Positions 1 to 28,430 of a stretch of DNA of 64,000 bases are shown piece by piece. A program made the translations under genes and the position numbers. The DNA is from an uncultured Clostridia bacterium. Lineage in GTDB: Bacteria > Bacillota > Clostridia > TANB77 > CAG-508. Each line of letters begins with the position of its first letter. The first letter of the stretch is position 1. Location: NCBI GenBank assembly GCA_947628085.1, contig CANQYM010000005.1:3919-67918 (forward strand). The letters are read 5' to 3'. A model generated the notes under the pieces. It saw only the letters and a list, made by a program, of their open reading frames with translations. It did not search any database and was not told the origin of the DNA.

Positions 1-32
1 ACTTATTTAGAAATAGAAAAACTAATAGAAGG

Positions 33-1280
33 TTGAAAAAAGGAATAAATATGAATTTTATAAAAAAATACAAAAGCTTTTTATCAGATATGGTTTTAAA
101 TATGATAGGCTTTGGAATTTATATTGCATCTCAGCAAATTCTATTATTGCCACTGCTTAAAAAAATGGTAGATGTAGATATTTATGCTGGAATGGTATTA
201 TATTTATCAATATTAAATCTTATATGTAATGTAACAGGTGGAGAGCTTGGAAATGTTAGGTTAGTTCAAGATAGTAATTATCAAGAAGAGGGAAAAATAG
301 GAGATTTTTCAAGAATATTGCTTACAATTTCTCCAATAATTTGTATAATTGTTTTTCCAATCTTATTGTATTTAAAATATAGTATAATAGGTAGTATTCT
401 ATTTACATTAACAATTTTAATGGCTAATGTAAGATTATATGCAACATGTTTTTATAGATTAAAGAAAAAATTTAATAAAGTAATTTTTCAAAATTTATGC
501 TATTTAGTTGGAATTATAATTAGTTTAATATTATTTTATTTTTATAAAAATATATATTTATTGCTATTTATACCAGAGCTAATTTCTATAGTCTATGCAC
601 TTAAAAATTCAGATCTTTTAGAAATGAAGTTAAAAAAGACTAAAGAAATGATAAATACTATAAAAAAATTCTTCAAATTAGGATTTGTATCTTTACTCAC
701 AAATTTAATGGCATATTTTGATAAATTTTTAATATATCCAATGTTTGGAGCACTTTCAGTTTCTGTTTATTATGCAGTAACTTCCATGTCAAAAGTTACA
801 AGCTTAATAACAAACCCAATGTCAAGTGTAATATTATCTTGGATTTCAAACATTAATGAAAAAGACAAAAAATCAAAAATAATAAAAATTACAATGTTAG
901 CAAATATACCAGTATTGCTAATAGTTACAATTCTTACAATTCCGCTAACATATATTTTTTTAAAAATACTATACAATGAATTTTTACTAGATGGAATGAT
1001 TTTAATAATTCCAATATCAATAACAAGCGCTTTTGGAACAGCAACATCTCTTATAAAATCTGTATTATTAAAATACAGCAATACAAATAAACTAGTATTT
1101 ACATACATAATATATTTTGCTTCATTTGCAATATTAGGATATACTTTAAGTAAAAATTATGAATTAATAGGATTTACTTTTGCAAACTTAATATCATCAG
1201 TTATTCAGTGGATATTATTTATAGTATTATTAGTAAAATCTAGAAAAGAAATAAACAAGGAGCAAGTAAATGAAAAATAA
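33..1280 (+). CDS. Wzx-like polysaccharide/oligosaccharide flippase (MOP superfamily membrane protein)
   Basis: The 415-aa protein is hydrophobic along its whole length with about 12 predicted TM segments. Its size and topology are typical of Wzx/polysaccharide biosynthesis proteins. It is the first gene of the glycan locus. The RBS is weak, so the start could be the internal ATG at 51. Confidence 0.5.
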   Translation: MKKGINMNFIKKYKSFLSDMVLNMIGFGIYIASQQILLLPLLKKMVDVDIYAGMVLYLSILNLICNVTGGELGNVRLVQDSNYQEEGKIGDFSRILLTISPIICIIVFPILLYLKYSIIGSILFTLTILMANVRLYATCFYRLKKKFNKVIFQNLCYLVGIIISLILFYFYKNIYLLLFIPELISIVYALKNSDLLEMKLKKTKEMINTIKKFFKLGFVSLLTNLMAYFDKFLIYPMFGALSVSVYYAVTSMSKVTSLITNPMSSVILSWISNINEKDKKSKIIKITMLANIPVLLIVTILTIPLTYIFLKILYNEFLLDGMILIIPISITSAFGTATSLIKSVLLKYSNTNKLVFTYIIYFASFAILGYTLSKNYELIGFTFANLISSVIQWILFIVLLVKSRKEINKEQVNEK

Positions 1281-2589
1281 AATTTTGAATAAAAGCAAAT
1301 TGCCAATAATTTTATTTATTATAGTATTTTTAAATTATTTACCATTATTTATGAATAATATAAATACTACAAATTCTATTGCTGTTACTGTAAAACAAAT
1401 GGGAATTGTGTTTGCAGTTGAATGTATTCTTTTAGCACTATTTATTTTAAAAAATACAAAAATAACAAAAGAAACTAAAAGAAATATTGTTTTACTAAGT
1501 ATAGTTACTATAATTACTTTAATAATTCAAGTTAAAAACTTTTTAGAAGGAAAATTTCAAATAATGGATTTAGCAAATATAACTTGCATAACATTAAACA
1601 TAGCTATGCTTTTTATATGTGCTTTAAGCATTATAAAAGTAAAACAAAAATCTATATATCTTTTTTATGTGGGAATAGTTTTAATTGGGATTCTTGCATG
1701 TATAGTTAACTTAATAATATATTCTAAATATATGCCAACAGTATTTGGACTTAAAGGGGAAGCAAGAGTAGTTGATATAAAAAGTTTTTTTGCACATAGA
1801 AATCAATTTGCGTGTTTCTTATATTTTTCTGTAGTTTCTACAATTATTTTATTTTTAAAATCTCATAAAAGAAAGCCAAAAATAGCATTAAGTGTTGTAC
1901 TTTTATTCTTTTTATTTAATTTAATAACAACAGCTTCAAGAACAGGAATATTATGCACAGGAATTTTTCTAACATTATTTTTCATTACCACTAATAAAAT
2001 ACATAAGAAGACGAAAATAATATTGGTTTTATTAGCAATTTTAATTGCAATTTCATGTTGGGGAATGATAACACTTCGTCTTCCAAATCTTGAAGAAAAA
2101 ATAATAAAAGTTTTAGAAAAAGTATTTATAAGAGAAAATTCAATAAAAACTTTTACTGGAAGAAGTGAATTTTGGAATTTAGCTTTTCAAACAATTTCAA
2201 AAAAACCAGTAAATATGCTATTTGGAATTGGCAGATTTGTAGGATTAGAATTATTGAAAGAAAATAATTATGAAGTTACTCAATTTCATAGTTTTTATGT
2301 AGAAGCTTTAGTAGCAGGTGGGATAATGGAATTAATTTATTTTCTATACATATATATAACTGTGCTAAGAAAAGTTTTGAAATCTAATTTAAGAACAAAA
2401 TATAAAAGATTTTATATTTCACTTTATATTAGCTTTGCTATTTACTGTGGTTTTGAAAGCTTAGCAAGATTTTCAATTGGATGTGTAGATACAATGTGTT
2501 TAATTTTTGTAATTACAATACCATTATTGCATGCAAACAGTAAGCTTAATGTAAAAAAATGGAAAAAAGTAGAGGAGAAAAATAAATGA
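1270..2589 (+). CDS. O-antigen ligase family (Wzy_C) membrane protein; candidate Wzy polymerase or WsaB-like O-oligosaccharyl:protein transferase
   Basis: The 439-aa protein has about 10-12 TM segments and a long extracytoplasmic loop (…RSEFWNLAFQ…GIGRF…) with the R…W…GxG pattern of the O-antigen ligase/Wzy_C family. It overlaps the upstream gene by 11 bp, indicating translational coupling. Confidence 0.55.
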   Translation: MKNKILNKSKLPIILFIIVFLNYLPLFMNNINTTNSIAVTVKQMGIVFAVECILLALFILKNTKITKETKRNIVLLSIVTIITLIIQVKNFLEGKFQIMDLANITCITLNIAMLFICALSIIKVKQKSIYLFYVGIVLIGILACIVNLIIYSKYMPTVFGLKGEARVVDIKSFFAHRNQFACFLYFSVVSTIILFLKSHKRKPKIALSVVLLFFLFNLITTASRTGILCTGIFLTLFFITTNKIHKKTKIILVLLAILIAISCWGMITLRLPNLEEKIIKVLEKVFIRENSIKTFTGRSEFWNLAFQTISKKPVNMLFGIGRFVGLELLKENNYEVTQFHSFYVEALVAGGIMELIYFLYIYITVLRKVLKSNLRTKYKRFYISLYISFAIYCGFESLARFSIGCVDTMCLIFVITIPLLHANSKLNVKKWKKVEEKNK

Positions 2590-3632
2590 TTTTAAAAGGC
2601 TTAATTACTTTAATTATATTTGTTATAGCTCCATTTTTATTAGGAGTATTAGTAACAAATTTTCTTGAAAAAGAAAAAAATAATTTGTTATTTGCAATAT
2701 TAATTGGTTATTTAGTAGAATTTGCTATATGTGAGTTAATTTCTGTTCCAATGATTTTTTTGGGACGCAGTTTTAATTTTCTATTTGTTACTTATATACT
2801 TATAATTGGAATTTTAATGATTGCATCAATAATTGTAAATAGAAATAATTTTAAAGAAATGTTTTTTACTATAGTAAAAAACTTAAAAAATGTACCTAAA
2901 CTATTAAGTATTATTTGCATAATATTAGTTGTTTTTCAAATTTATATGTTTGTAGTTTACACACATATAGATGATGATGATGCTTTTTATATTGGCTCTA
3001 TTACTACAACCTTGCAAACAAATACATTATATAAATATTCTCCAACTACAGGGGCAACTTCAGGAGAGCACATGGATTTGAGATATAAATTAGCTCCTTT
3101 TCCATTATTTATGGCAATAGTTTCAAAACTAATTAATATGCATCCAGATATAGTATCACATATCATTTTTCCAATTTTTATGTTGCCAGTAATTTATAGT
3201 ATGTATTATCTTTTAGCAAAAGAATTTTTTAATGAAGACATAAAATCATCATTAATTTTTGTAATAATAATTAACATTTTAAATATGTTTAGTGGTTATT
3301 CAGTAAGAACTATTAGTGCATTCTTACTATTTCGTATATGGCAAGGAAAAGCTATACTTGCAAATTTAATGATGCCAGCAATAGTATTATTTATTTTGAA
3401 GGCAAATAAAAATGACTATAAATTTATATATTGCATTTTAATTATAATACTAACTCTAGCTTCAAATATTACAACAACTATGGCGATAGGATTAATACCA
3501 ATAGAAATAGCTGTAATTTTCTTTGTACTAGAATTTTCTGATTTTAAATTTAAAAGATTTTTTATAAATATGGGAAAAGCTATAATTTGTGCTATGCCAA
3601 GTCTTATTTATGGCTTAATATATTTTTTATAA
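2586..3632 (+). CDS. polytopic membrane protein (EpsG/GT-C-like?), unknown function
   Basis: The 348-aa protein is almost entirely TM helices. Its first loop has an acidic cluster (HIDDDDAFYIGS) that resembles the DD/DE motifs of GT-C glycosyltransferases. It overlaps the upstream stop codon by 4 bp (ATGA). Confidence 0.35.
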   Translation: MILKGLITLIIFVIAPFLLGVLVTNFLEKEKNNLLFAILIGYLVEFAICELISVPMIFLGRSFNFLFVTYILIIGILMIASIIVNRNNFKEMFFTIVKNLKNVPKLLSIICIILVVFQIYMFVVYTHIDDDDAFYIGSITTTLQTNTLYKYSPTTGATSGEHMDLRYKLAPFPLFMAIVSKLINMHPDIVSHIIFPIFMLPVIYSMYYLLAKEFFNEDIKSSLIFVIIINILNMFSGYSVRTISAFLLFRIWQGKAILANLMMPAIVLFILKANKNDYKFIYCILIIILTLASNITTTMAIGLIPIEIAVIFFVLEFSDFKFKRFFINMGKAIICAMPSLIYGLIYFL

Positions 3633-3646: not shown

Positions 3647-4396
3647 ATGTTAAAAGAAAATATAGAAATAGTAAAAAATTCATTTTTAGAATATAAAGGT
3701 GATGGAATGTATATGACTCTATTTTTAATAGGAATGCTATACATTTTATTAAAAGAGAAAAATAAAAAAATAAAATTATTATTTGTTTTATATCCAATAA
3801 TAATAATGTTTATAACCTTAAATCCAATATTTCATAAAATAATTGGAAATCTTTTTGAAGCTACATATTGGAGACTTTTTTGGCTAATACCTCTAATAAT
3901 TGAAATAGCATATTTTTCAGTATTGCTTATAAAAGAGCAAGAGAAAAAAAACCAAGTAGTAGCATGTGTTGGAATTATATTAATAATAATATTTAGTGGA
4001 AAATTTATATATAATCAAAATAATTTTATAAAAACTGGAAATTTATATAAATTACCAGATGAAAGTGTTTTAGTAGCGCAATTAATTGGAGCAGATGAAG
4101 CAGAATATAAAAAGGCAATTGTTCCTGAAACACTTGTAGCACATATTAGACAAATAGATGCTAGCATAGAGTTATTATACAAAAGAGATCCTGAGGGAAA
4201 ATATTTCGAAAATCCTGCATGGAGAGAATTAAATTCGGGAAATGTGGAAGGAATTACTAAAATTGCTAAAGACAAAAAATGTAATTACATTGTATTTAAA
4301 AAAGCAGCTGTTTTAACTGCCAAAATGGAAGATTACGGCTTTGAGAAAATGACTGAAACGGAAAATTATGCAATTTATAAATACATAGAAAAATAA
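3647..4396 (+). CDS. membrane-anchored protein with C-terminal soluble domain, unknown function
   Basis: The 249-aa protein has its own GGAGA RBS. Four N-terminal TM helices are followed by a roughly 120-aa hydrophilic domain. It could act together with the preceding membrane protein. Confidence 0.3.
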   Translation: MLKENIEIVKNSFLEYKGDGMYMTLFLIGMLYILLKEKNKKIKLLFVLYPIIIMFITLNPIFHKIIGNLFEATYWRLFWLIPLIIEIAYFSVLLIKEQEKKNQVVACVGIILIIIFSGKFIYNQNNFIKTGNLYKLPDESVLVAQLIGADEAEYKKAIVPETLVAHIRQIDASIELLYKRDPEGKYFENPAWRELNSGNVEGITKIAKDKKCNYIVFKKAAVLTAKMEDYGFEKMTETENYAIYKYIEK

Positions 4397-4467: not shown

Positions 4468-5460
4468 ATGAAAATATTAGTAACAGGTGGTTTAGGATTT
4501 ATTGGTTCACACACAGTAGTTGAACTTGCAAAGGAAAATAATGAAATAATTATTGTAGATAATTTATATAACAGCAAAATTGAAGTTTTAGAAAGACTAG
4601 AGAAAATTACTGGAAAAAAATTTAAATTTTATAGGTATGATTTATTAAATAAAGAAGATTTAGAAAAAGTATTTGAAGAAAATAAAATTGATAGTGTAAT
4701 ACATTTTGCTGGATATAAAGCAGTTGGAGAATCTGTAAAAAAACCATTAATGTATTATTCAAATAATTTAATGAGTACATTAAATCTGTTAAATATAATG
4801 AAAAAATATGATGTAAAAAAATTTATATTTAGTTCATCAGCAACTGTATATGGAAGCAGAGAAACAGCTATATGTATAGAGAGCATGGGAAGAGGAGAAA
4901 CATCTAATCCATATGGAACAACAAAGAGTATGATAGAGAAAATATTAGAAGATTTATATGCTTCAGATAATAGTTGGAACATTACTATTCTTAGATATTT
5001 TAATCCAGTAGGAGCACATGAATCTGGATTAATAGGAGAAGAACCAAATGGAATTCCAAATAATTTAATGCCATATATTATGAAAGTTGCATCAGGAAAA
5101 TTAGAAGTACTAAGTATATTTGGAGATGATTATCCAACACCAGATGGTACAGGAATAAGAGACTATATTCATGTTGTTGATTTAGCAAAAGGACATGTGA
5201 AAGCTTTAGAAAATATGAAACAAGGTTTAAACTATTATAATTTAGGTTCTGGAAAAGGCGTAAGTGTTTTAGAAATGGTAAAAACTTTTGAAAAAGTTAA
5301 TAATGTAAAAGTAAATTATAAAATAGTTGAAAGAAGAGCAGGAGATTTAGCAGAATGCTATGCAGATCCATCTAAAGCATTAAGAGAATTAAACTGGAAA
5401 ACAGAAAAAAGTTTAGAAGATATTTGCAGAGATGCTTGGAATTTTGAAAAAAATAATTAA
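4468..5460 (+). CDS. galE: UDP-glucose 4-epimerase
   Basis: The N-terminus carries the MKILVTGGLGFIGSH Rossmann motif. The protein is 330 aa and has the SDR YxxxK catalytic motif (YGTTKSM), with end-to-end similarity to GalE. Confidence 0.9.
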   Translation: MKILVTGGLGFIGSHTVVELAKENNEIIIVDNLYNSKIEVLERLEKITGKKFKFYRYDLLNKEDLEKVFEENKIDSVIHFAGYKAVGESVKKPLMYYSNNLMSTLNLLNIMKKYDVKKFIFSSSATVYGSRETAICIESMGRGETSNPYGTTKSMIEKILEDLYASDNSWNITILRYFNPVGAHESGLIGEEPNGIPNNLMPYIMKVASGKLEVLSIFGDDYPTPDGTGIRDYIHVVDLAKGHVKALENMKQGLNYYNLGSGKGVSVLEMVKTFEKVNNVKVNYKIVERRAGDLAECYADPSKALRELNWKTEKSLEDICRDAWNFEKNN

Positions 5461-5501
5461 TTGAAATAAAATAAGAAATCAAAAAATAAATAATAATGTA
5501 T

Positions 5502-5547
5502 AAAAGGTTAAAATGTTAAAAAAAGTTAACATTTTAACCTTTTTTTA
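5502..5547 (+). terminator. rho-independent terminator after galE
   Basis: A 16-bp perfect inverted repeat (AAAAGGTTAAAATGTT…AACATTTTAACCTTTT) is followed by T7. Confidence 0.6.
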
Positions 5548-5583
5548 AGCACAAAAAATTCACAATTAAATATTCTTAAAATG

Positions 5584-5612
5584 TTGAAAATGATATGGTT
5601 AAATGATATAAT
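5584..5612 (+). promoter_or_regulatory. sigma-A type promoter for the wzm operon
   Basis: TTGAAA, a 17-bp spacer, then TGaTATAAT (extended -10). It lies 35 bp upstream of wzm. Confidence 0.6.
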
Positions 5613-5627
5613 ACACGAGTAAAATTA

Positions 5628-6440
5628 TTGGGTAAAAAAGGAAAAATTATGGAATTTTTTAAAATACTTTTCAAAAATAGAAAATTAGCAATTAAACTTG
5701 GAAAAAATGATTTTAGAAATAGGTTTGCAAATACAAGCTTAGGAACAGTATGGGGATTTGCACAGCCTTTTGTATTTATGATTACATATGTAATTGTATT
5801 TCAATATATTTTAAAATCTGGAAGCAGTGGAGAATATCCTTATGTTGTTTGGTTTTTACCAGGAATGTCTATGTGGATGTTTTGCAGTGATGCAATTTTA
5901 ACTTCAAGTAATTCAATTAGAAATTATAGCTATTTAGTTAAAAAAGTTGTCTTTCCAGTAGACATTATTCCTGTAATATCACTTACTTCTGCTAGTTTTA
6001 TTGGTATATTTTTAATTACAATTGCAGTAGTTGTTGCATCATTATTTGGATATGTACCAAACTTTATTAATGTTATCTATATACTATTTTGTGCAATTTG
6101 TTTCATAATTGCTTTAACAAGATTTACATCGGCTTTAACTACTGTAGTTCCAGACTTTGCACAATTACTTACAATAGTAATTCAATTATGTATGTGGTTT
6201 ACACCAATAATTTGGAACTTAGATTTTATAGCAGGCTCAAAATTGGTTTATTTATTTAAATGTATGCCATTTACTTATTTAGTAGAGGGATTTAGACAAG
6301 CATTTATGGAACACTCAACAATCATTACAGAAAGTAATTTCCTATTTACAATAATCTTTTGGGCTTTAACAATTTTAATTTTCTTTTGGGGAAATAAAGT
6401 ATTTAAGAAAACAAAAAAAGATTTTGCAGATGTTTTATAA
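5628..6440 (+). CDS. wzm: ABC-2 type polysaccharide/teichoic-acid export permease (Wzm/TagG family)
   Basis: It carries the conserved N-terminal motif DFRNRFANTSLGTVWGFAQP of Wzm/TagG permeases and six TM helices. The likelier start is the ATG at 5649 (MEFFK…), which has an AAGGAAAA RBS. Confidence 0.85.
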   Translation: MGKKGKIMEFFKILFKNRKLAIKLGKNDFRNRFANTSLGTVWGFAQPFVFMITYVIVFQYILKSGSSGEYPYVVWFLPGMSMWMFCSDAILTSSNSIRNYSYLVKKVVFPVDIIPVISLTSASFIGIFLITIAVVVASLFGYVPNFINVIYILFCAICFIIALTRFTSALTTVVPDFAQLLTIVIQLCMWFTPIIWNLDFIAGSKLVYLFKCMPFTYLVEGFRQAFMEHSTIITESNFLFTIIFWALTILIFFWGNKVFKKTKKDFADVL

Positions 6441-6463: not shown

Positions 6464-7438
6464 ATGGAAAATACAAATGTAGATATTTTGCTTGCTACAT
6501 ATAATGGAGAAAAATATTTAAAACCACAGCTAGACAGTATTTTATCTCAAAGTTATTCTAATTTTAGATTACTTATATCAGATGATGGTTCAACAGATAA
6601 AACAAAAAGCATTTTAGAAGAATATAGCAAAAAAGATAATAGAATTGTTTTGTTTTTTCAAAAAGAAAATTTAGGAATAATAAAAAATTTTGAATTTTTA
6701 CTAAAAAAAGTAGAAGCAAAATATTATATGTTTTCAGACCAAGATGACATTTGGAAAGAAAACAAAATAGAAAAATCAATTAAAACTTTAGAAGAAACTG
6801 AAAGCGATTTAGTTTATTCTGATCTAGAAGTCGTTGATGAAAATTTAAAAGTAATTTATGAATCTTATTGGAAACTAAAAGGAATTTATAAAAAAATCAA
6901 AAAATACAATAATTTCAAAAGCTTATACTTAAATAATTTTGTCACTGGTTGTACAATGCTTTCAAAAAAAGATTTAATAAATAAATTTTTACCACTTCCA
7001 AAAACTAGTAAATATGTGCTTCATGATTATTGGATTCCATTAATACTTAGTCAAACAGGAAAAATAACCTACATAGAGGAACCTTTAATAAAATATAGAC
7101 AACATAAAAATAATAAAATAGGTTCTAAAAAAAGGTCTGATGAAATAAAAACTTTAGATGAAATAAGAGCTTTATTTATAGATGTGAAAAAACAACATTT
7201 TAAAACTTTTATTGAAAATGAAGATAAATTTATAGATGAAAATGTTAAAACATTAAATAAGAAAGCCTTAACATATTATGAAATGCTAGAGAAAAAGAAA
7301 AATATTAATTTTAGAAATTGGGTATTATTTTTTAAACTTTACAAATATGAAGAATTTGGCTACACAGTGCAAAACTTTTTAATTTTAAACATTCCAATTT
7401 TAGCAAGATTTTTATTTAAATTTAAGAAAAAATCATAA
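6464..7438 (+). CDS. family 2 glycosyltransferase
   Basis: The GT-A N-terminus reads ILLATYNGEKYL…SDDGSTDKT, with a DxD-like SDQDD. The protein is 324 aa. Confidence 0.8.
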   Translation: MENTNVDILLATYNGEKYLKPQLDSILSQSYSNFRLLISDDGSTDKTKSILEEYSKKDNRIVLFFQKENLGIIKNFEFLLKKVEAKYYMFSDQDDIWKENKIEKSIKTLEETESDLVYSDLEVVDENLKVIYESYWKLKGIYKKIKKYNNFKSLYLNNFVTGCTMLSKKDLINKFLPLPKTSKYVLHDYWIPLILSQTGKITYIEEPLIKYRQHKNNKIGSKKRSDEIKTLDEIRALFIDVKKQHFKTFIENEDKFIDENVKTLNKKALTYYEMLEKKKNINFRNWVLFFKLYKYEEFGYTVQNFLILNIPILARFLFKFKKKS

Positions 7439-7479: not shown

Positions 7480-8778
7480 ATGAGTGATACAGTAATTAAA
7501 ATTTCTAATTTAGTAAAAGAATATAAAATGTTTTCAAGGAAAAAAGATAGACTACTTGAGGCAATTCTACCATTTTACACAAAACATACAACATTTAAAG
7601 CATTAGATAATTTAAATTTGGAAATAAAAAAAGGTGAAGTTTTAGGAATTTTAGGAAAAAATGGGGCAGGAAAATCTACTCTTTTGAAAATGATTACAGG
7701 AGTTGTTTCACCAACCGCTGGAGAAATAGAAGTAAATGGAAAAATAAGTTCACTTCTAGAACTTGGAGCAGCTTTTAACCCAGATTTAACAGGATATGAA
7801 AATATATATCAACATGGACAAGTTATGGGTTTATCAGATGAAGAAATTAAAGCAAAAGAAAAGGAAATAATTGATTTTGCAGATATTGGAGAGCACTTAT
7901 CTCAACCAGTAAAAACATATTCATCAGGTATGTTTGCTCGTTTAGCATTTGCTTGTGCAATTAATGTTGATCCAGATATCTTAATTGTAGATGAAGTTCT
8001 ATCTGTTGGAGATATGGCATTTCAACTTAAATGTTTTAAAAAGTTCGAACAATTTAAAAATAATGGAAAAACAATAATATTTGTAACTCATAATATAAAT
8101 GATGTTATGACAAACTGCAACAGAGTTATTATTTTAGAAAATGGTAGAAAAACTTTTGATGGAACTGTAAAAGATGGAATTGATAGATATAAAAAAATAA
8201 TTGTTGGCTTAAACCCAGATGAAAACATTAAAAATGAAAATGAAGAAATAATAATTTCAAACACAGAAACAATTTCAAATGAGAATAATTTAAATACTTG
8301 GAAAAAGGACTTCAATCAAAATCCAAATATGATTGAATATGGAAATAGAGAAGCAGAAGTTATAGACTATGGAGTTTTTGATAAAGATGGAAATCCGGCA
8401 AATATATTTGACAATGGAGATTATATAACTTTTAAATCTAAAGTAAAGTTCAATAAACAAGTTAAAGAGCCAATTTTTACAGTAACCTTAAAAGACTTTA
8501 GTGGAAAAGATGTTACAGGAACAAATTCAAATATAGAAAAAATTGCAACAGGAACATTTGAAAAAGGAGATATAGCTATTGCAGAGTTTACACAAAAAGT
8601 GCCAGTAGCGCCAGGAAAATATACACTTTCTTTTAGCTGTACAAAATATAATGCAAGAGGTTCTTTAGAAGCTTTAGATAGAAAATATGATGCTTTACTT
8701 GTTGAAGTTATTACAACTAAAAGTACAGTTGGATTAATTAGATTAGATTCAAAAATAAATATAAAAAAAATAAATTAA
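7480..8778 (+). CDS. wzt: ABC transporter ATP-binding protein (Wzt/TagH family) with C-terminal glycan-binding extension
   Basis: Walker A (GKNGAGKST), the ABC signature (YSSGMFARLAFA) and Walker B (ILIVDE) are all present. About 190 extra C-terminal residues form a beta-rich domain like the carbohydrate-binding modules of Wzt proteins. Confidence 0.85.
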   Translation: MSDTVIKISNLVKEYKMFSRKKDRLLEAILPFYTKHTTFKALDNLNLEIKKGEVLGILGKNGAGKSTLLKMITGVVSPTAGEIEVNGKISSLLELGAAFNPDLTGYENIYQHGQVMGLSDEEIKAKEKEIIDFADIGEHLSQPVKTYSSGMFARLAFACAINVDPDILIVDEVLSVGDMAFQLKCFKKFEQFKNNGKTIIFVTHNINDVMTNCNRVIILENGRKTFDGTVKDGIDRYKKIIVGLNPDENIKNENEEIIISNTETISNENNLNTWKKDFNQNPNMIEYGNREAEVIDYGVFDKDGNPANIFDNGDYITFKSKVKFNKQVKEPIFTVTLKDFSGKDVTGTNSNIEKIATGTFEKGDIAIAEFTQKVPVAPGKYTLSFSCTKYNARGSLEALDRKYDALLVEVITTKSTVGLIRLDSKINIKKIN

Positions 8779-21210: not shown

Positions 21211-22108
21211 AAAAGTTGCGGTTATAATGTCAACATATAATGGAGAAAAATATGTAGCAGAACAGCTTGATTCTATTATAAATCAAACATATAAAAACAT
21301 AGAAATAATTGTTAGAGATGATGGTTCTACAGATAGTACAGTAAATATTATAAAAAATTATCAAAAAACTTACGAAAATATTAAATTATATGAAGGCGAA
21401 AATATAGGTTTTATTAAAAGCTTTTTTGAACTTCTTAAAACAACTGAGGCAGATTATTATGCTTATGCGGATCAAGATGATGTGTGGATGGAGAATAAAA
21501 TAGAACTTGCAGTAGACTTATTAGATGAATTAGATGATTCTAAACCTAATATGGCTTTTGGAAATTCAGATTATTATGATGAAAATATGAAACTAATTTC
21601 AAAAGGTCCTAAAAATAGAAAATTTTCATTTCTAACAGCACTATTTGCTTGTGTAACTCAAGGAATGACAATGACTGTAAATAAAACAACTAGAGATATG
21701 ATAATAGAAAATACCCCCAGATCTTGTTTCTTCCATGATTGGTGGACATATCTTTTATGTATTGGACTTGGAAATGTAGCATATAGTAATGAAACAGTTG
21801 TAAAATATAGAAGAAGAAAAGAAAACGCAACATCAGAAGGTCAAGGATATATAAGATTATTAATTTGGAGAATAAAAAATCTTTTATTTAAAGATGGAAT
21901 GAGAGATATTAAACAACAAATGATAAACTTTAAAGACTATTATTATTATCAATTATCAGATGAAAATAAAAAAATTCTAGATTTATTTTCAGAAGAAGAC
22001 TATTCTTTTTCTAATGCTTGTAAAAAAGCTTTTTATAGAGCCAGAATTAGAACAAATATAATAGATGATTTGATGATAAGAATAATATTTTTAATAGGAG
22101 TTTTATAA
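21200..22108 (+). CDS. family 2 glycosyltransferase
   Basis: VAVIMSTYNGEKYVAEQLDSIINQT…RDDGSTDST…DQDD. The protein is 302 aa and is similar to the GT2 at 6464. Confidence 0.8.
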   Translation: MKDKKVAVIMSTYNGEKYVAEQLDSIINQTYKNIEIIVRDDGSTDSTVNIIKNYQKTYENIKLYEGENIGFIKSFFELLKTTEADYYAYADQDDVWMENKIELAVDLLDELDDSKPNMAFGNSDYYDENMKLISKGPKNRKFSFLTALFACVTQGMTMTVNKTTRDMIIENTPRSCFFHDWWTYLLCIGLGNVAYSNETVVKYRRRKENATSEGQGYIRLLIWRIKNLLFKDGMRDIKQQMINFKDYYYYQLSDENKKILDLFSEEDYSFSNACKKAFYRARIRTNIIDDLMIRIIFLIGVL

Positions 22109-23367
22109 TGAATTCAGAAAAAAAGGCTTTTTTGAAAAATTTTATTTGGAATAGTTTAGGTACAGGAATAAACTCTTTTAATTCATTATTTTTCTTAATA
22201 ATTGTAACAAGAGTAAATGATATTCAAACAGCTGGAATATTTTCAATAGCTTATGCAACAGCAACAATTCTTTACACTTTAGCTATGTATTCTGGCAGAC
22301 TTTGCCAAGTAACAGATATAGAAAATAAAATAAAAGATAAAGATTATATTGCAAACAGAGCACTTACTTGTTTCATAATGATAATAGGTGCAACAATTTT
22401 TTTGTGTTTAAAAAGATATTCGGGATTTAAAACTACAATTTTTGCATTACTTGCAATTTTTAAAGGACTAGAAGCTTTTTCAGATATTCTTTATGGTGTA
22501 ATGCAAAAAAATGATATTTTATATAAATCCGGACAATCTTTGTGTTTAAAAGGTTTCATAGGAATAATTCTATTTTTAATTGTAGATTTAGTAACAAGAG
22601 ATTTAAGACTTGCTTGTTTAGCTGTAATTATTGTAAATGTTGCAGTATTAATTATATATGATTATATTTTAATAACAAGAAAACTTATAGATAATAGTAG
22701 TAGAATAAATTATAAAAATGTTTTATCAATATTAAAAAGCGAATTTTTTGTATTTGTAAATTCTTTTGCAGGAATATATATTTTAAATGCCCCTAAATAT
22801 GCAATAGACAATTTTTTAACAGAGGACATTCAAGCGATATATGGTTACATAATGATGCCAGCTACTGTAATGACTTTATTCACACAATTCATAGTAATGC
22901 CTTTTTTAGGCAAAATGAAAGATATGTATGAGAAAAAAGATTTAAAACAACTAGAAGATGTTACTTTTAAAATAAAATTAGTTGTTATTGCATTTGGAGC
23001 TTTTGCAGTTTTAGCAGCATTCTTATTAGGACCAGAATTTTTAGGATTAATATATGGTTTAGATTTAACAGCATACAGAATGAACTTATGTGTAATAATT
23101 GGATCATATATATTCTATGCAATTTCATATATAAATTTAGTAACTTTAACAACAATAAGACATACATTTGTACAGTTTGTAATTTATGTTATTTCAATGG
23201 TTATAGCTTTCACTGGTTCAAATGTTTTAGTTAGAGTTTTAAACTTAGGAATAAATGGTGCAACTTTTTCATGCACAACAACACTTGCAATACAATTTAT
23301 AATGTATACAACAGTTACAAAAATAATTATTCACAAAGAAAATAAAAAATTAGAAGAGCAAAAATAA
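22108..23367 (+). CDS. Wzx-like oligosaccharide flippase (MOP superfamily)
   Basis: The 419-aa protein has 12 TM helices and an N-terminus typical of polysaccharide biosynthesis/Wzx proteins. The start overlaps the upstream stop (ATAATG). Confidence 0.65.
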   Translation: MNSEKKAFLKNFIWNSLGTGINSFNSLFFLIIVTRVNDIQTAGIFSIAYATATILYTLAMYSGRLCQVTDIENKIKDKDYIANRALTCFIMIIGATIFLCLKRYSGFKTTIFALLAIFKGLEAFSDILYGVMQKNDILYKSGQSLCLKGFIGIILFLIVDLVTRDLRLACLAVIIVNVAVLIIYDYILITRKLIDNSSRINYKNVLSILKSEFFVFVNSFAGIYILNAPKYAIDNFLTEDIQAIYGYIMMPATVMTLFTQFIVMPFLGKMKDMYEKKDLKQLEDVTFKIKLVVIAFGAFAVLAAFLLGPEFLGLIYGLDLTAYRMNLCVIIGSYIFYAISYINLVTLTTIRHTFVQFVIYVISMVIAFTGSNVLVRVLNLGINGATFSCTTTLAIQFIMYTTVTKIIIHKENKKLEEQK

Positions 23368-23431
23368 ATTATTTATAAAATTAAGTAGCTAAAACAAAAG
23401 ATAGAAAATATAAAAATAAAAGGAGAAAGAA

Positions 23432-25615
23432 ATGGAGATTTTATACATAATAACATTAATATTACTTGGAATAAGTTTTATGATGTTTAAAAAATCAGAA
23501 GAAAAAATAAACTTCATTAAATGGCTAATAATTTATATTGTTTCACTATTTGGATACAATGTTTTTATTGGAATGCTTTTAGGCTTACTTAACATTACAT
23601 CACATTTATGGCTTTTATCAATTATAAACATAGCTTTTGCAATTCTTTTAGGATTTAAAGCTATAAAAAATAAAGATTTTCAAAAATATTATGTAAGAAA
23701 ATTAGATATAATTTCTATCATTTTTGTTTTAGTGATTTTTGCAGTAATGTTTGTAAAAGATTTATATATCTTTAATGGAGATATATCTCATATGGCAATG
23801 GATTCAGCTATACATTATAGAGCTGCAAAACATTATGCAGACAATTTAAAAATATTTATAAATGTAGAAGACAAAACATTTTTCAATTTTAATGTAATGC
23901 AAACAGGTGCATACATAAATGATGGAATTTTCATGAATGTAATACATGGAATTACTGGAATAGGTCATGAGTATTTGTTTCAAGCATTTGAAACAATGGT
24001 GCTATTTTTAAGCGGACTTTCATTTTATGCATTCTTTGGTGAAAGAATTAAAACTAAACGAGGATTAGTAGCAAGTTTAGTATTATTTGCTTTATATATA
24101 TATGGATATCCATATAATTCTTGGTTTTATGGATTTTCATATTTATCAGTTGGAATAATGATGGTAGCAATTTTGTTACCAATTACTGAATGCTTATATT
24201 CAGAAGAGAAAATTACAAAAAAATTAACAATACCTTTAATTGTTTTGGCAGGAACAGGATTAATTTTCTCATATTGTTTATTTGTGCCAGCAGTTTTTTC
24301 TGCAATATGCATTTACTGTTTCTTAAAAGATATTACTTCAAAAGAAGGAAAAAAATATTTAAAGTTTTTCAAGAAAACAACTTTAATTGTAACTGGGCTA
24401 CTTTTACTAGTTACAGCTGTTGGAATTGGTTACATAGTTGTTCCAACATTCTTTATAGAGGGACAAACCAAATTAACTGAAGCTATAAAACTTGAAGGAG
24501 CAATATATTCTGGAACTTATGAAAACTTAATTCCATATACACCATTTTTAGTTTTATTCTTGGTACAATTAGTAAAAAGAATAAAAAATAAAAGCCTAAG
24601 ATTTTTAGATGTTTTTTCTGTTTTTATAATGGGATATTTAGCACTTCTAATGTTAGGAGTACAATATAATTTAGCATCAAAATACTATATGTATAAAGTA
24701 TATTTTATAATGTGGCTAGTTACATTTAGCATAACAATAGATTACATAAATGAAAATGTAGATAAGAAAATATTTAGAATTGATGCAATAATCATATTTA
24801 TGATATATGTTTTCTTTACAACAAAAGCTATCGCAGTTATAACAAACATTAACATATCAAATCCAGGCAAATATTCAATGAACGATTTATACAATATGTT
24901 TATTGAAAATCTATTTACAATACATGATTTATTAATGTTTTTATTGCTTGCATTTTTCACTGTTTTGCCTCAATTAATAGATAAAATTAATTTAAGTAAA
25001 ATAACAGAAAAATTATCAAGCAAATTTAAATCTGAAAAAATTAAAAATTTATTAAATAAAATATCTGTAATAGAAATTAAAAGAATATGCATATCTGGAT
25101 ATATTTATGTAATTCTTTGGGGCGTATTTGTTTGCGGTTGGGTTTGGTTAAAAGCAGGATTAATAATAAGTGAAGATACAAAACATAATTTGCCAAATCT
25201 TGTTGGAATTTATTATGAAGAAAACTGTAACAACAGAAAATTAGTAGATTTAACTCAAAATCTTAATTCAAATCAAATTAAATTAATTAAATATGCAAGA
25301 GAAAACTTTAAAGATATGACAGTTGAAAATACAGAACTTATGACAAAAGGATACTATCCTAGAGTTTGGTCAACAGCAATGCTAGAATTTTCAAGTGAAA
25401 AAGTTAGATATGAAAATGTTATTCAAGATACAAACATCTATACTTTAAAAGATGCTTTAGAGGACAGTGAGAAAAAATATATAGTAAAATTAGTTTCTAG
25501 AGATGCAAATGATTTAAAAGAATATCAAGAGGAATTAAAAGATGTAAAACAAACAGAAAATGTTGAAATACTTTTAGAGAACGAAAACGGTTATGTAGCT
25601 AAGATTAATAGATAA
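23432..25615 (+). CDS. large polytopic membrane protein with C-terminal soluble domain (uncharacterised, GT-C-like candidate)
   Basis: The 727-aa protein has about 13 TM helices and a roughly 170-aa C-terminal domain. It is paralogous to the next gene (MQTGAYIN, YPYxSxxYGFSYLSV). Both share a first-loop D[SA][AS][IM]HY motif. Confidence 0.4.
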   Translation: MEILYIITLILLGISFMMFKKSEEKINFIKWLIIYIVSLFGYNVFIGMLLGLLNITSHLWLLSIINIAFAILLGFKAIKNKDFQKYYVRKLDIISIIFVLVIFAVMFVKDLYIFNGDISHMAMDSAIHYRAAKHYADNLKIFINVEDKTFFNFNVMQTGAYINDGIFMNVIHGITGIGHEYLFQAFETMVLFLSGLSFYAFFGERIKTKRGLVASLVLFALYIYGYPYNSWFYGFSYLSVGIMMVAILLPITECLYSEEKITKKLTIPLIVLAGTGLIFSYCLFVPAVFSAICIYCFLKDITSKEGKKYLKFFKKTTLIVTGLLLLVTAVGIGYIVVPTFFIEGQTKLTEAIKLEGAIYSGTYENLIPYTPFLVLFLVQLVKRIKNKSLRFLDVFSVFIMGYLALLMLGVQYNLASKYYMYKVYFIMWLVTFSITIDYINENVDKKIFRIDAIIIFMIYVFFTTKAIAVITNINISNPGKYSMNDLYNMFIENLFTIHDLLMFLLLAFFTVLPQLIDKINLSKITEKLSSKFKSEKIKNLLNKISVIEIKRICISGYIYVILWGVFVCGWVWLKAGLIISEDTKHNLPNLVGIYYEENCNNRKLVDLTQNLNSNQIKLIKYARENFKDMTVENTELMTKGYYPRVWSTAMLEFSSEKVRYENVIQDTNIYTLKDALEDSEKKYIVKLVSRDANDLKEYQEELKDVKQTENVEILLENENGYVAKINR

Positions 25616-25668
25616 AATATTTTATAGATTTTTCAAAAATCTAAATTAAATTTAAGGAAGAAAATAAA

Positions 25669-27507
25669 ATGGGAATTTTTTATGCCTTAACAGTTTTGGT
25701 AATGCTTGTTATTTTTGTAATTGTAAAGAAAAGTGACAAGAGATTAAATTTAGTAAGTTGGATTATATTATCTTTAATTTCTTATTTAGGATTTAATATT
25801 TTAGTATGCATGGTATTTGGAGCCATGAATATTACAACAAACTTACTATTCTTATCAATAAGTAATTTAGTTGTAGCTTTAGGACTTGGATTTAAAATAT
25901 TTAAAGATAAAAAAATTCAAAAATTTGAAATAAGAAAAAGAGATTTTATAGCAGTTATAGTTGCTTGTGCTATTGTTTGTTATATGGCAGTTAATCAATA
26001 TAAACCTCTTGCAAAAACGATGGCAAATGCTTCTGTGGATGCTAGTATGCATTATAGTGCAACAATAAATTTTGCAAACAATATGAAAATTTTATCTAAA
26101 ATAGATAATCAAACTGGTTATAACTTTAAAACTATGCAAACAGGTGCATACATAAATACAGGAATTTTTATAAGTATGGTAAGAAGTATTCTTCCAAACT
26201 TTAGAGATTATGTAACATTTAAAATTTTTGAAATGGGAATATTGCTTCTTAACATATTGGCATTTTATATGCTAATATCAGACAAACTAGAAACAAAAGG
26301 AAATTTTGTATTTGGTATATTATTTTTAATTTTATATGGATTTGCATATCCATATACTAGTTTATTATATGGATTTTCATATTTAAGTGTAGCAATTGCT
26401 TTTGCAACAGGATTATTTTACTTAGCAAAAATTTATGATAACCGAAAAGTTAATTTTCCAACAATGCTAAGTTTAATAATACTTATGGGAGTTGGAATAA
26501 TCTTTTCATATTGTTTATTTGTTCCAGCACTATTTGCATTTATTTGTATATATGTATTTTTAAAAGACAAGAAAAAAGAAGAAAAATCTTATTTAAAATT
26601 TTTCAAAAAATCAACTCTTTTAGTTACAGGACTACTTTTAATTGTAACAGCTTTAGCAATATGTTATTTAGTAATTCCAACATTTACAGATAGTGATCAA
26701 AATAAATTAACAGATGCAATTGGATTTGTTGGTGGAAGCTATAAGTCTTTATATCAAGATTTCTTGTTTTATATACCTTTTGTAGTTTTATTTATATATA
26801 AATCTATAAAAAATAAAGATTTAAATTTTCAAGTAGTAGCATTAGCATTACTTGTATTTCAAACAGTTATAACATTTTTAGGATTAGTAAATGGAATAGT
26901 ATCAAGCTACTATTACTATAAAATTTATTATATAATTTGGATTTTATTAGCAGATATTGCTGTTGAAGTTCTATGCAGCATGAAAGATAATAAAGAATTA
27001 GGAGTAGTTTTAAAAACAGCAACAGTAATATGGGTTTGCATAATTTGTTTTGCAATTGGCGGATATGAAGAAAAATTATATGCTAAAAATCCTACAATAA
27101 TGGATACACCAGCAGAACTAAGACTTTCAAAATTAGCTGGAATTTACTATGATACAAATATTTTTGGCATAAAAAATATTAATGCTTCTTGTTTAGTAAA
27201 TCAATACAGGCTTGAGCTTGCAGAACAAATGGGAAAACAGGAAGATATGACACTAAAAAATATGTTAGTTGGTGGAATGAATACTAATTGCAAAGCTTGG
27301 ATGTATGTTGTTTCTGGAATTACATCAGGCGGTGAATCAATAAATGATTTGCAAGTTGCAGTTGTAGAAACTAATGTAGATGATTGGATGAAAAAAGAGG
27401 ATAAAAAATATTTTGTTCTATATGATGAGTCAAATACTTATGAAAATACTGATGATTATGAAGTAGTTTTCAGTAATAGTGCAGGAGTTATTTTAAAGAA
27501 GAAATAA
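25669..27507 (+). CDS. paralogous polytopic membrane protein with C-terminal soluble domain (uncharacterised)
   Basis: The 612-aa protein is about 35-40% identical to the preceding gene across the TM region and has the same domain order. Confidence 0.4.
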   Translation: MGIFYALTVLVMLVIFVIVKKSDKRLNLVSWIILSLISYLGFNILVCMVFGAMNITTNLLFLSISNLVVALGLGFKIFKDKKIQKFEIRKRDFIAVIVACAIVCYMAVNQYKPLAKTMANASVDASMHYSATINFANNMKILSKIDNQTGYNFKTMQTGAYINTGIFISMVRSILPNFRDYVTFKIFEMGILLLNILAFYMLISDKLETKGNFVFGILFLILYGFAYPYTSLLYGFSYLSVAIAFATGLFYLAKIYDNRKVNFPTMLSLIILMGVGIIFSYCLFVPALFAFICIYVFLKDKKKEEKSYLKFFKKSTLLVTGLLLIVTALAICYLVIPTFTDSDQNKLTDAIGFVGGSYKSLYQDFLFYIPFVVLFIYKSIKNKDLNFQVVALALLVFQTVITFLGLVNGIVSSYYYYKIYYIIWILLADIAVEVLCSMKDNKELGVVLKTATVIWVCIICFAIGGYEEKLYAKNPTIMDTPAELRLSKLAGIYYDTNIFGIKNINASCLVNQYRLELAEQMGKQEDMTLKNMLVGGMNTNCKAWMYVVSGITSGGESINDLQVAVVETNVDDWMKKEDKKYFVLYDESNTYENTDDYEVVFSNSAGVILKKK

Positions 27508-27512
27508 TTATA

Positions 27513-28430
27513 TTGCAAATTAAATTTATAGGAGAAAAAATGAAAGTTGCGGCAATAGTAGTAAACTATAATGATGTAGAAGATACAGAAAACTATATAA
27601 AAAATATATCTAATTATAAAGCTATTGATAGAATATTAGTCGTAGATAATATGTCTACGACTGAAAATGCTTTTTCTAGATTAAAAAGTTTAGAAGGAAA
27701 TAATAAAGTAAAAGTTATTCAATCTGAAAAAAATGGTGGATATAATTATGGAAACAATTTTGGAATAAAATATTTAGAAGACCTAAACGAAAAATATGAC
27801 TATTATATTATTTCAAATCCAGATATAGAAATTACTGAAGAAACAATAAAAAAATGTTTAGAAGAAATTCAAAAAGATGAGAAAATTGCTGTTATTGCAC
27901 CAAGAATGTTTAATAAAGAAAATAAACCAATAAGAAGAAGTAGTTGGAAAATAAGAACATTTTGGCTAGATGTAGTTCATTCTACAAGAATATTAGAACT
28001 TCTTTTTTATAAAGTATTAAGAAATGGAGAATATTCAAATAAAGAATATGAACAAGAAAAACTAGAAGTAGAAGCAATTTCAGGAGCATTTTTTATAATA
28101 AGAAGTAATGTTATAAAAGAAATTGGATTTTTTGATGAAAACACATTTTTATTTTATGAAGAAGATATTTTAGCAAAAAAATTATTAAAAGAAAATTTAA
28201 AAACTATTTGCTTAACTAAAGAAAAATTTATTCATTATGAGAGTCAAACTATTGGAAAAACATTTAGCTACTATAAAAAAATGTTACAAATGTATAAAAG
28301 TAAAATGTATTATCACAAAACGTATAACAATATAAATATAATTCAAAAATTTGTTTTTTTACTGTTATTTTTAGTAAGAAACATTGAGCTGATTATTGAA
28401 ATTCCAATGAGAAAAATATTAAAAAAATAA
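27513..28430 (+). CDS. family 2 glycosyltransferase
   Basis: KVAAIVVNYNDVEDT…VVDNMST is a GT2 motif. The more probable start is 27540 (MKVAAIV), which has a GGAGAAAAA RBS. Confidence 0.8.
   Translation: MQIKFIGEKMKVAAIVVNYNDVEDTENYIKNISNYKAIDRILVVDNMSTTENAFSRLKSLEGNNKVKVIQSEKNGGYNYGNNFGIKYLEDLNEKYDYYIISNPDIEITEETIKKCLEEIQKDEKIAVIAPRMFNKENKPIRRSSWKIRTFWLDVVHSTRILELLFYKVLRNGEYSNKEYEQEKLEVEAISGAFFIIRSNVIKEIGFFDENTFLFYEEDILAKKLLKENLKTICLTKEKFIHYESQTIGKTFSYYKKMLQMYKSKMYYHKTYNNINIIQKFVFLLLFLVRNIELIIEIPMRKILKK

Follow-up and report, generated by a model that had tools for sequence, protein, structure and literature searches.

Rhamnose-rich wall polysaccharides of Gram-positive bacteria have a backbone that is exported by an ABC transporter and receives its extracytoplasmic decoration from three- or four-component or "complex" systems (PMC9574508). 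In the complex systems, such as WpsA-J of Lactococcus lactis and GacI-L of Streptococcus pyogenes, a GtrB-like enzyme and cytoplasmic glycosyltransferases (GTs) build an oligosaccharide on undecaprenyl phosphate (Und-P), a Wzx-family protein flips it, and GT-C enzymes polymerise or attach it (PMC9574508). Termination of the lactococcal rhamnan is only hypothesised, by way of a cap sugar added by RgpE (PMC9574508). Here we describe a glycan-assembly cluster of at least 37 kb from an uncultured Clostridia bacterium of the rabbit gut, read from a 64-kb stretch of DNA (the window) together with a public contig.

In our reading, which we hold somewhat likelier to be right than wrong, this locus makes a complex cell-wall-associated polysaccharide and works like the lactococcal, streptococcal and enterococcal loci for rhamnose-rich wall polysaccharides. 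It is not a member of that group, since no rmlABCD genes were found in the locus and matches to the rhamnosyltransferase subfamily TIGR01556 were weak and far below the cutoff. As in Lactococcus cwps (rgp and wps), S. pyogenes gacA-L and Enterococcus faecalis epa (PMC9574508, PMC7188991), co-oriented genes join ABC export of a backbone to transmembrane glycosylation, and a conserved core is accompanied by more variable specificity genes. Unlike those loci, the present one has no rml genes in or near it, has a Wzt_C domain on its Wzt and a kinase/coiled-coil terminator of WbdD type, contains GT-C families that have no Pfam or CAZy assignment, and belongs to uncultured Clostridia and not to Lactobacillales. 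We know of no WbdD-type terminator in the cwps, gac or epa loci. A prediction made earlier from the window's letters alone (the sequence-only reading) had seen the machinery of three normally separate routes in one block: an ABC exporter with a chain terminator, Wzx flippases with a Wzy_C protein, and polyprenyl-phosphate-sugar/GT-C machinery. Families and folds bear out this combination; its description as a union of normally separate routes has to be given up, as these modules also stand together in lactococcal cwps, streptococcal GAC and enterococcal EPA (PMC9574508). The composite design is already known from Lactobacillales, and for every module a counterpart has been described. What sets this variant apart is a kinase terminator with a degenerate methyltransferase (MTase) that is fused to a polymerase in a Firmicute, the union of Wzt_C-gated export with decoration of Wps type, a GT-C family lacking annotation and a broken GtrA.

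Extent and conservation of the locus

Within the window the genes from 33 to 28430 are closely packed and all on the + strand, forming a single co-oriented block as predicted. Hidden Markov model (HMM) searches identified rlmN, a PP2C phosphatase gene (stp) and a PASTA kinase gene (prkC) immediately 3′ of the block, again as predicted, and these are followed in order by rpe, a bactofilin-like gene, pta and three acetate kinase genes; the remainder of the window holds housekeeping genes and one nonribosomal peptide synthetase (NRPS). The GC content of the window is about 24%. It is 100% identical over 22 kb to a rabbit-gut metagenome contig in ENA, and its rlmN is 99% identical to that of the metagenome-assembled genome (MAG) "uncultured Clostridia bacterium Lapin-005__bin45".

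The public contig shows that the glycan locus runs at least 8.7 kb beyond the upstream edge of the window. The genes found there encode a family 2 glycosyltransferase (GT2) fused to GtrA_DPMS_TM, a PglF-like 4,6-dehydratase (CoA_binding_3 and Polysacc_synt_2), a DegT aminotransferase, a 207-aa Bac_transf (PglC-type) priming transferase, an ATP-grasp protein, a FemAB-family protein and a GT4, and the first two genes of the window directly follow this GT4-containing set. The PglC-type gene is the only priming transferase seen in the at least 37 kb. An antitoxin-like (by eye) 82-aa open reading frame (ORF) lies between the GT2-GtrA fusion and the PglF-like gene (L005 1049-1297). Position 1 is hence not the beginning of a 28-kb locus, as had been supposed, the upstream part including both nucleotide-sugar genes and the primer. 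The related statement that galE is the sole nucleotide-sugar gene is valid inside the window only, because the window edge cuts the locus, and it fails beyond that edge, where the dehydratase and the aminotransferase are found. By gene content the locus can be divided into four putative sub-modules: M1, a PglC-primed Wzx/Wzy_C unit that lies mostly upstream of the window and reaches 4396; M2, the ABC backbone and terminator genes (4468-16277); M3, the broken gtrA, gtrB, a GT2 gene and DUF7657 (16320-21210); and M4, a GT2 gene, wzx, two GT-C genes and a further GT2 gene (21200-28430).

Families were assigned by Pfam and NCBIfam HMM searches of the window proteins (Table 1), and transmembrane (TM) segments were counted by a crude hydropathy scan. 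The searches confirmed most of the predicted gene content, exceptions being an intact gtrA and a YfhO-like protein. The 415-, 249-, 727- and 612-aa proteins had no match to any family, and the 419-aa protein had a sub-threshold match only. An Rfam scan of the window was empty.

We compared the locus with the 80 nearest rlmN loci, all from MAGs of uncultured low-GC Clostridia, one of them a 1.55-Mb complete chromosome; they include Clostridium sp. CAG:354, CAG:575 and CAG:343 and Candidatus Scatovivens. The order and sequence of the core are conserved across genera (71-87% identity). In locus L090, from a different genus, the order is a 254-aa protein gene, galE, a pilin/sortase insertion, wzm, a GT2 gene, wzt, a standalone terminator gene, two double-GT2 genes, an intact gtrA, genes of two Glucos_trans_II proteins, a gtrB-like gene, a GT2 gene and the DUF7657 gene, with 67-82% identity to the window for most genes and lower values for the 249/254-aa protein and the terminator. 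The insertion between galE and wzm (L090 1839-6663) comprises two pilin genes (Cna_B/SpaA, GramPos_pilinD1) and a sortase gene. L092 and L093 keep the whole left module, at identities to the window of 88% for the PglF-like protein, 81% for DegT, 80% for the priming phosphoglycosyltransferase, 71-73% for Wzx, 52-60% for Wzy_C (duplicated in L092), about 50% for DUF6077 and 35% for FemAB. Gene order is kept in L092, L093 and L010-L018. In the 6-8 closest species rlmN is preceded by the right-hand genes, whose identities follow that of rlmN; in the nearest species these genes equal rlmN, stp and prkC in degree of conservation. A core so highly conserved from genus to genus is more readily expected of a housekeeping wall polymer than of an S-layer glycan that varies between strains.

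The same comparison bears on the suggestion that the block marks an insertion hotspot where fmt and rsmB normally sit. A horizontally acquired island upstream of rlmN that displaced fmt and rsmB would agree with the GC content of the locus, 0.22-0.27 against 0.28-0.30 in the downstream housekeeping genes, and with the variation among family members in the gene 5′ of rlmN. However, equally low GC occurs elsewhere in the window, no tRNA gene, integrase or flanking repeat was found around the locus in tRNA and repeat scans of the window, and the closest 6-8 species have the identical gene set before rlmN. Where other relatives differ, rlmN is preceded by assorted housekeeping genes (U32 peptidase, DUF6320 after HemN-like, GatD-like after MurT, ClpX and Asd), and in none of the 80 related genomes by fmt or rsmB. 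The island explanation is thus largely refuted and we regard it as highly improbable; judged from these comparisons, the locus appears to be ancestral to the clade and not an island.

Backbone synthesis, ABC export and a predicted chain terminator

The predicted GalE and the Wzm/Wzt pair were all recognised by their families, GalE above its cutoff, and the C-terminal glycan-binding domain of Wzt matched PF14524 strongly (E 3.8e-35, 121 bits against a cutoff of 30.4). The best solved relatives of Wzt are full-length O-antigen Wzt (7k2t, 8dku) and TarH/TagH. All three predicted tandem double-GT2 enzymes were found, each with two GT2 stretches: the 649- and 623-aa proteins and the C-terminal half of the 1202-aa protein. 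They are paralogs, 50-60% identical, in a tandem triplication of about 1.9 kb. The five predicted single GT2s were likewise recovered by PF00535 (starts 6464, 16950, 17893, 21200 and 27513, the second being GtrB-like). As an initiating transferase for the backbone only the upstream PglC-type enzyme was seen, which may or may not prime the ABC-exported chain.

The 1202-aa protein carries its two GT2 domains at about 640-1140 (Pfam). In an AlphaFold (AF2) model (pLDDT 87.8) a Rossmann-like domain (residues 1 to about 165) is followed by an alpha/beta domain resembling kinases (about 210-440), by a single helix of 80 residues (442-522) and by a short helix with a conserved NSLSWKITKP motif. This terminator part, the first ~540 residues, exists as a standalone protein of ~540 aa in many related MAGs and other genera; it is standalone in L090 and fused to GT2s in the window, L092 and L093. 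Searched against the PDB with Foldseek, the model matched five WbdD entries among its top 12, aligned over 490-590 columns and both domains; its other matches include generic class I methyltransferases, Rio2, PRPK and a protein of the choline/ethanolamine kinase family. A profile of the family searched against PDB sequences matched class I methyltransferases (E 2e-6) and did not match WbdD, so that no sequence-level homology to WbdD was detected.

Distant homologues, 35-40% identical, have class I S-adenosylmethionine (SAM)-methyltransferase Pfam domains. In an alignment of 56 sequences SAM motif I reads EIGAGxG in the distant homologues and EIE-NSEE/QIG-EDxE in the query and its subclade, which has also lost ~25 residues from the Rossmann fold. 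The motifs G-x-x-D-L-x-F-Q-N and Y-D-Q-E-W are invariant in all 56 homologues, as are the kinase catalytic residues D365 and N370 and the metal-binding D382; assigned by eye, these invariant motifs resemble the Brenner phosphotransferase motif of aminoglycoside phosphotransferases (APH) and choline kinases. Because SAM motif I is lost, the terminator is probably non-methylating and a phosphate-only cap is likely. Among 99 homologues of the stretch encoded at 8847-10706 the spacer from the kinase YDQEW to the NSxSWK motif is mainly 121, 128, 135 or 142 residues long, that is, it varies by whole heptads, which fits a coiled coil that would serve as a ruler. One homologue has an outlier spacer of 210 residues. 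From the modelled fold we infer that the N-terminal module is a chain terminator that phosphorylates the non-reducing end. The earlier label of a WsaE/WbdD-like terminator agrees with architecture and fold, the activity being a prediction from the model.

The domain order is that of WbdD (Escherichia coli O9a / Klebsiella pneumoniae O3; PDB 4azs, 4azt, 4uw0), with nearly collinear boundaries: in WbdD the MTase spans 1-210 and the kinase 211-459, and the coiled coil begins at 460 (PMC3482155). Both proteins belong to export systems coupled to a Wzt with a carbohydrate-binding module (CBM). In the present protein, in contrast, the MTase is degenerate, the kinase motifs are, as judged by eye, of APH/choline-kinase (Brenner) type and the polymerase domains are fused, whereas WbdD recruits the separate WbdA. 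The closest published architecture, likened by domain layout and not by sequence, is the experimentally characterised ORF6 of K. pneumoniae O7. It begins with a methyltransferase, continues with an unannotated kinase domain and a coiled coil, and ends in two GT2 modules, which some of its orthologues have and others lack (PMC11231755). Fused and standalone forms are likewise seen here, and both proteins work with Wzm and a CBM-bearing Wzt. They differ in that motif I and a portion of the Rossmann fold are lost here, that no CBM lies between kinase and coiled coil, and that the host is Gram-positive.

Flippases, GT-C-fold proteins and a broken gtrA

The two flippases that had been called Wzx-like, of 415 and 419 aa, are unrelated to each other at the level of BLAST. 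Neither is assigned by its own score (none for the 415-aa protein, below the cutoff for the 419-aa protein), and the call holds through their relatives, whose PF01943 matches indicate divergent Wzx/MOP proteins. The family of the 415-aa protein has 782 representatives; among 44 sampled members PF01943 was found in 9, PF13440 in 2 and PelG in 1, and a profile of the family searched against PDB sequences returned nothing useful. The 419-aa protein has 981 homologues, and the best 120 of the 981 clusters are 82-100% identical to it, ~14 of them with PF01943; relatives at 85-87% identity carry this domain, and source names among the homologues include "O-antigen/teichoic acid export membrane protein". 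In the hydropathy scan the Wzx-type proteins have 8-10 TM segments, against the ~12 helices expected of Wzx/MOP proteins. The 419-aa flippase is as conserved as the neighbouring housekeeping genes, compared with ~50-65% for its GT-C neighbours, and this conservation suggests a conserved lipid-linked substrate.

The two further large GT-C-like paralogs that had been proposed were supported by structure for the 727-aa protein and by its 43% identity for the 612-aa protein. The top 15 Foldseek matches of the 727-aa model in the PDB are all GT-C proteins (DPY19, AftA, AglB, PglB, Pmt4, Pmt1/2, EmbB). None of the 452 homologues in its family is annotated, and a family profile searched against PDB sequences gave nothing useful. 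Asp124, His128 and Tyr129 are invariant in the family and lie in the loop after TM4, which would be outside the membrane by the positive-inside rule. The nucleotide repeats D5, D6 and D8 also support the paralogy of the 612-aa protein. The GT2 gene that follows them, the last before rlmN, encodes a protein with weak matches to a rhamnosyltransferase subfamily and to GlfT1.

A functional GtrA, as previously assumed, was not found, for the gene is frameshifted in this strain. The frameshift lies near 16520-16535 (ATTTTTAGGCGGC); the 72-aa ORF stops at 16538 and the remainder continues in another frame to 16839. Once repaired, the sequence aligns before and after the shift to the L090 orthologue, which is intact and 198 aa long (PF04138; L090 15447-16043), and matches NCBIfam gtrA_1 only at E 0.004. 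The frameshifted sequence is identical in 4 assemblies from different samples, and by this comparison the gene may be a fixed pseudogene or may be read through. The GtrB assignment was upheld by a GT2 catalytic domain and C-terminal TM segments (233-282), with TIGR04182 below its equivalog cutoff and weaker matches to DPhHxTase and PpgS.

The 745-aa protein had been described as YfhO-like, and the HMM searches found DUF7657 and DUF7654 only: YfhO (PF09586) was rejected, with no match at E <= 1, and there was no NCBIfam match. An hhalign comparison of DUF7657 with the 727-aa family detected no relation (probability 2.9%), and a DUF7657 profile searched against PDB sequences gave nothing useful. 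The sole DUF7657 homologue in a plasmid database is on plasmid pCC1524 of Pseudomonas asturiensis (L094 74868-76868; 27% identity, E 2e-14). It adjoins genes of a GT2, a 1457-aa glycosyltransferase and an ABC transporter ATPase/permease pair, a neighbourhood that fits a role of DUF7657 in modifying ABC-exported glycans.

These genes recall GtrA/B/C, CsbB/YfhO, GacIJKL and the GT136 pentofuranose systems, in which a finished polymer is modified outside the membrane by the joint action of a polyprenyl-phosphate-sugar synthase, a GtrA or MOP/Wzx flippase and a GT-C enzyme (PMC8035078, PMC11127046). Here, by contrast, GtrA is inactivated and the GT-C candidates have no YfhO, Glucos_trans_II or PMT match. 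The several cytoplasmic GT2s suggest oligosaccharide rather than monosaccharide donors.

At the left end, the predicted Wzy_C/O-antigen-ligase-family protein scored above the gathering cutoff of PF04932. This family spans polymerase, ligase and O-oligosaccharyltransferase activities, and the context, with wzx adjoining and the priming transferase and GT4 genes upstream, is compatible with either reading, so that by its family the protein could be a polymerase or a ligase/O-oligosaccharyltransferase. It is just 52-60% identical in relatives. L092 has two tandem Wzy_C paralogs (5127-7717; 41% and 52% identical to the window protein), compared with one in the window. The DUF6077 protein, which has an acidic HIDDDDAFY motif in a loop (read by eye), is a possible candidate for a GT-C-like role. 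Orthologues of the 249-aa protein adjoin galE in L090, L092 and L093. A literature search on DUF6077, DUF7657 and DUF7654 returned nothing.

Table 1. Genes and promoter-like sites of the glycan locus within the window, with the matches that support each assignment (aa, amino acids; E, E-value).
Feature	Coordinates	Strand	Evidence and remarks
Putative divergent Wzx/MOP flippase, 415 aa (409 aa in public assemblies)	33..1280	+	~10 TM; penultimate gene of the PglC-primed module
Wzy_C-family membrane protein, 439 aa	1270..2589	+	PF04932, E 7.8e-12, 45.6 bits (cutoff 31.7); ~10 TM
DUF6077 polytopic membrane protein	2586..3632	+	PF19554, E 1.9e-92; ~10 TM; ~50% identity in relatives
249-aa membrane protein	3647..4396	+	no family match; 3 TM; kept beside galE
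UDP-glucose 4-epimerase GalE	4468..5460	+	TIGR01179, 438 bits (cutoff 262)
Promoter-like site, best-scoring	5584..5612	+	gap before wzm; 11/12 consensus and extended -10 TG; suggestive only
Wzm, ABC-2 permease	5628..6440	+	PF01061, E 1.9e-16; 82-87% identity in relatives
Single GT2 between wzm and wzt	6464..7438	+	PF00535, E 1.6e-29; same place in L090, L092, L093
Wzt ATPase with C-terminal glycan-binding domain	7480..8778	+	ABC_tran PF00005, E 1.6e-24; Wzt_C PF14524
Predicted terminator-polymerase fusion, 1202 aa	8847..12455	+	degenerate MTase fold, kinase fold, coiled coil, two GT2 domains
Double-GT2 enzyme, 649 aa, candidate polymerase	12455..14404	+	two GT2 stretches; 82% identical to 646-aa L090 orthologue
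Double-GT2 enzyme, 623 aa, candidate polymerase	14406..16277	+	two GT2 stretches; 71% identical to 599-aa L090 orthologue
GtrA-family flippase gene, frameshifted	16320..16839	+	72-aa ORF and tail in another frame
Promoter-like site, second best	16883..16910	+	gap before gtrB-like gene; 11/12 consensus and TG; suggestive only
GtrB/AglJ-like polyprenyl-phosphate glycosyltransferase	16950..17891	+	PF00535; TIGR04182, 225 bits (cutoff 325)
Single GT2, always beside gtrB-like gene	17893..18933	+	PF00535, E 4e-38; 82% identical and same place in L090
DUF7657/DUF7654 polytopic protein, 745 aa, candidate extracytoplasmic transferase	18973..21210	+	PF24677, E 5e-99; PF24672, E 4e-38
Single GT2	21200..22108	+	PF00535, E 1.4e-26
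Putative Wzx/MOP flippase, 419 aa, very conserved	22108..23367	+	Polysacc_synt, E 0.0045, 16.9 bits, below cutoff
GT-C-fold membrane glycosyltransferase (predicted), 727 aa	23432..25615	+	AF2 pLDDT 83.3, pTM 0.82; no Pfam model for the family
Paralog of the 727-aa protein, 612 aa	25669..27507	+	43% identical over first ~390 residues; same BLAST cluster
Single GT2 with C-terminal TM segment	27513..28430	+	PF00535, E 8e-12; last gene before rlmN

Three observations concern the rest of the window. Endonuclease III appears to be split between two adjacent ORFs, one with HhH-GPD (34713-35024) and one with HHH and the Fe-S motif (35038-35346), possibly a pseudogene or an internal stop. At 35480-40258, three acetate-kinase-family paralogs (36548-37747, 37777-38976 and 39071-40258) stand in tandem behind pta. 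In the region 52233-61507 the NRPS is encoded by two ORFs with an 80-nt overlap (C-A and T-C-A-T-reductase), which could reflect a frameshift or two genes, and is followed by a 7TM histidine-kinase N-terminal region and a HATPase domain in separate overlapping ORFs.

A proposed assembly route and its alternatives

In the route that we propose, the backbone would be polymerised in the cytoplasm on Und-P by the three double-GT2 enzymes and one single GT2, with GalE supplying UDP-Gal or UDP-GalNAc. The N-terminal module of the 1202-aa protein, a kinase on a coiled-coil spacer with a vestigial MTase, would end chain growth, probably with a phosphate and not a methyl-phosphate cap; Wzt_C would recognise the capped end and Wzm/Wzt would export the chain. 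Decoration would take place outside the membrane: the GtrB-like enzyme and cytoplasmic GT2s would build sugars or oligosaccharides on Und-P, a Wzx-type flippase would carry the lipid-linked units across, a step assigned to this protein because the GtrA flippase is broken here, and the GT-C-fold enzymes (727 aa, 612 aa and probably DUF7657) would transfer or polymerise the units onto the backbone. A second unit, containing an N-acylated 4-amino-trideoxyhexose, may be built by the upstream module through the PglF-like dehydratase, the aminotransferase, the PglC-type primer, the ATP-grasp/FemAB proteins, GT4, Wzx and Wzy_C. It would either be polymerised by Wzy_C or form the primer/linkage end of the same polymer. 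The PASTA-kinase gene prkC of the window, and the sortase and pilin genes of L090, point to a Gram-positive wall and we count them in favour of a wall polymer.

Several results weigh against it. Genes for an LCP (LytR-CpsA-Psr) ligase, a TagO/WecA-type primer and rml functions are absent from the 64-kb window and the 8.7 kb upstream, which leaves peptidoglycan as the attachment site, and any assignment of the backbone sugar, unsupported. Wzy_C could be a ligase/O-oligosaccharyltransferase, in which case a protein or a lipid would be the likelier acceptor. The Foldseek E-values of the GT-C matches are weak, 1e-3 to 0.3 (probability 0.82-1.0), and the scores for WbdD are modest (E ~1e-5, TM-score ~0.2), low TM-scores being expected since domain orientation and the long helix differ.

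The sequence-only reading had favoured an S-layer, flagellin or secondary cell-wall polymer type of glycan. Conservation of the core speaks for the wall polymer over the S-layer; O-glycosylation of an S-layer or other surface protein (slg/Wsa-type or Neisseria pgl-type) is still a plausible rival, which we consider fairly improbable. It would involve one PglC-primed glycan, with a GT4 adaptor, elongation by the double GT2s, capping by the terminator, export by Wzm/Wzt, and Wzy_C as the O-oligosaccharyltransferase (WsaB/PglL-like). The set of dehydratase, aminotransferase, priming transferase, GT4, flippase and Wzy_C mirrors that of bacillosamine-based protein glycosylation, and the sole primer in the at least 37 kb is PglC-type and in the module with Wzy_C. 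The same parts, a primer, wzm/wzt, WsaE (an MTase with two GTs) and the Wzy_C protein WsaB, make up the slg cluster of Geobacillus stearothermophilus, also a Gram-positive ABC-exported glycan system (WsaP, WsaB, WsaE, Wzm/Wzt; PMC2943079). Against slg, the present locus has a small primer of PglC type, where slg has a WbaP-type enzyme with 5 TM segments, additional modules (Wzx, GtrB and GT-C), and a terminator in which the kinase domain is present and the MTase degenerate. No S-layer or target gene, rml gene or WbaP-type primer was found in the window or the 8.7 kb upstream, and the window has no SLH gene; the missing S-layer gene is not decisive, because S-layer genes may lie elsewhere in the genome (PMC2943079). 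The 439-aa Wzy_C protein has no extra TPR or C-terminal domain of the kind reported for WsfB and PglL (PMC2943079), and its tandem duplication in L092 also speaks against this rival. We rate it below the wall polymer because the core, unlike strain-variable slg clusters, is kept between genera at the level of housekeeping genes, because wzx lies directly beside wzy_C, which fits a Wzx/Wzy route, and because no target gene is present.

The locus might instead make two or three independent glycans side by side, namely a capsule- or EPS-like Wzx/Wzy heteropolymer made by the upstream module, an ABC homopolymer and a GT-C decoration of another polymer such as lipoteichoic acid, which seems to us a shade less probable again than surface-protein glycosylation. 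In its favour, the two intergenic gaps that are largest, ahead of wzm and ahead of the gtrB-like gene, hold the strongest promoter-like sites; the total of such sites in the window is not above that in shuffled sequence. Distant relatives recombine the sub-modules, with one GT-C gene beside rlmN in L016 and L020 and a rearranged order in L019 and L021, and the pilin/sortase cassette interrupts the L090 locus. On the other hand, the genes are co-oriented and tightly packed, their order is kept in L092, L093 and L010-L018, no CpsBCD/Wzz or LCP genes accompany the Wzx/Wzy module, and Gram-positive loci so designed that have been characterised by experiment each produce a single composite polymer (PMC9574508). 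A capsule-type Wzy pathway was rejected, as no CpsBCD/Wzz or LCP genes were seen.

The wall polymer might be specified further as a rhamnose-free housekeeping glycopolymer on which this lineage of low-GC gut Clostridia with small genomes would depend. A kinase-only terminator, a pseudo-methyltransferase/kinase on a heptad-stepped ruler that is here fused to the polymerase, would set its length, Wzt_C would read its bare phosphate cap, and the new GT-C family, fed by the conserved Wzx, would polymerise or attach its side chains. We advance this full version tentatively, as doubtful in its entirety; if true, it would give Gram-positive bacteria a counterpart of O-antigen capping chemistry, coupled to extracytoplasmic assembly of Wps type.

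The practical limit of this system is that it has no cultured host. The analysis extends the combination of an ABC-made backbone with extracytoplasmic GT-C decoration from Lactobacillales to widespread uncultured gut Clostridia, and places in Firmicutes a coiled-coil terminator of WbdD/ORF6 type that is accompanied by a CBM-bearing Wzt. It also defines a GT-C family of more than 450 members that has no Pfam model, and suggests that a kinase-only form of the enzyme for methyl-phosphate capping exists in nature. Since such polymers are typically phage receptors and determinants of host interaction, the locus may be relevant to the ecology of these abundant gut bacteria.

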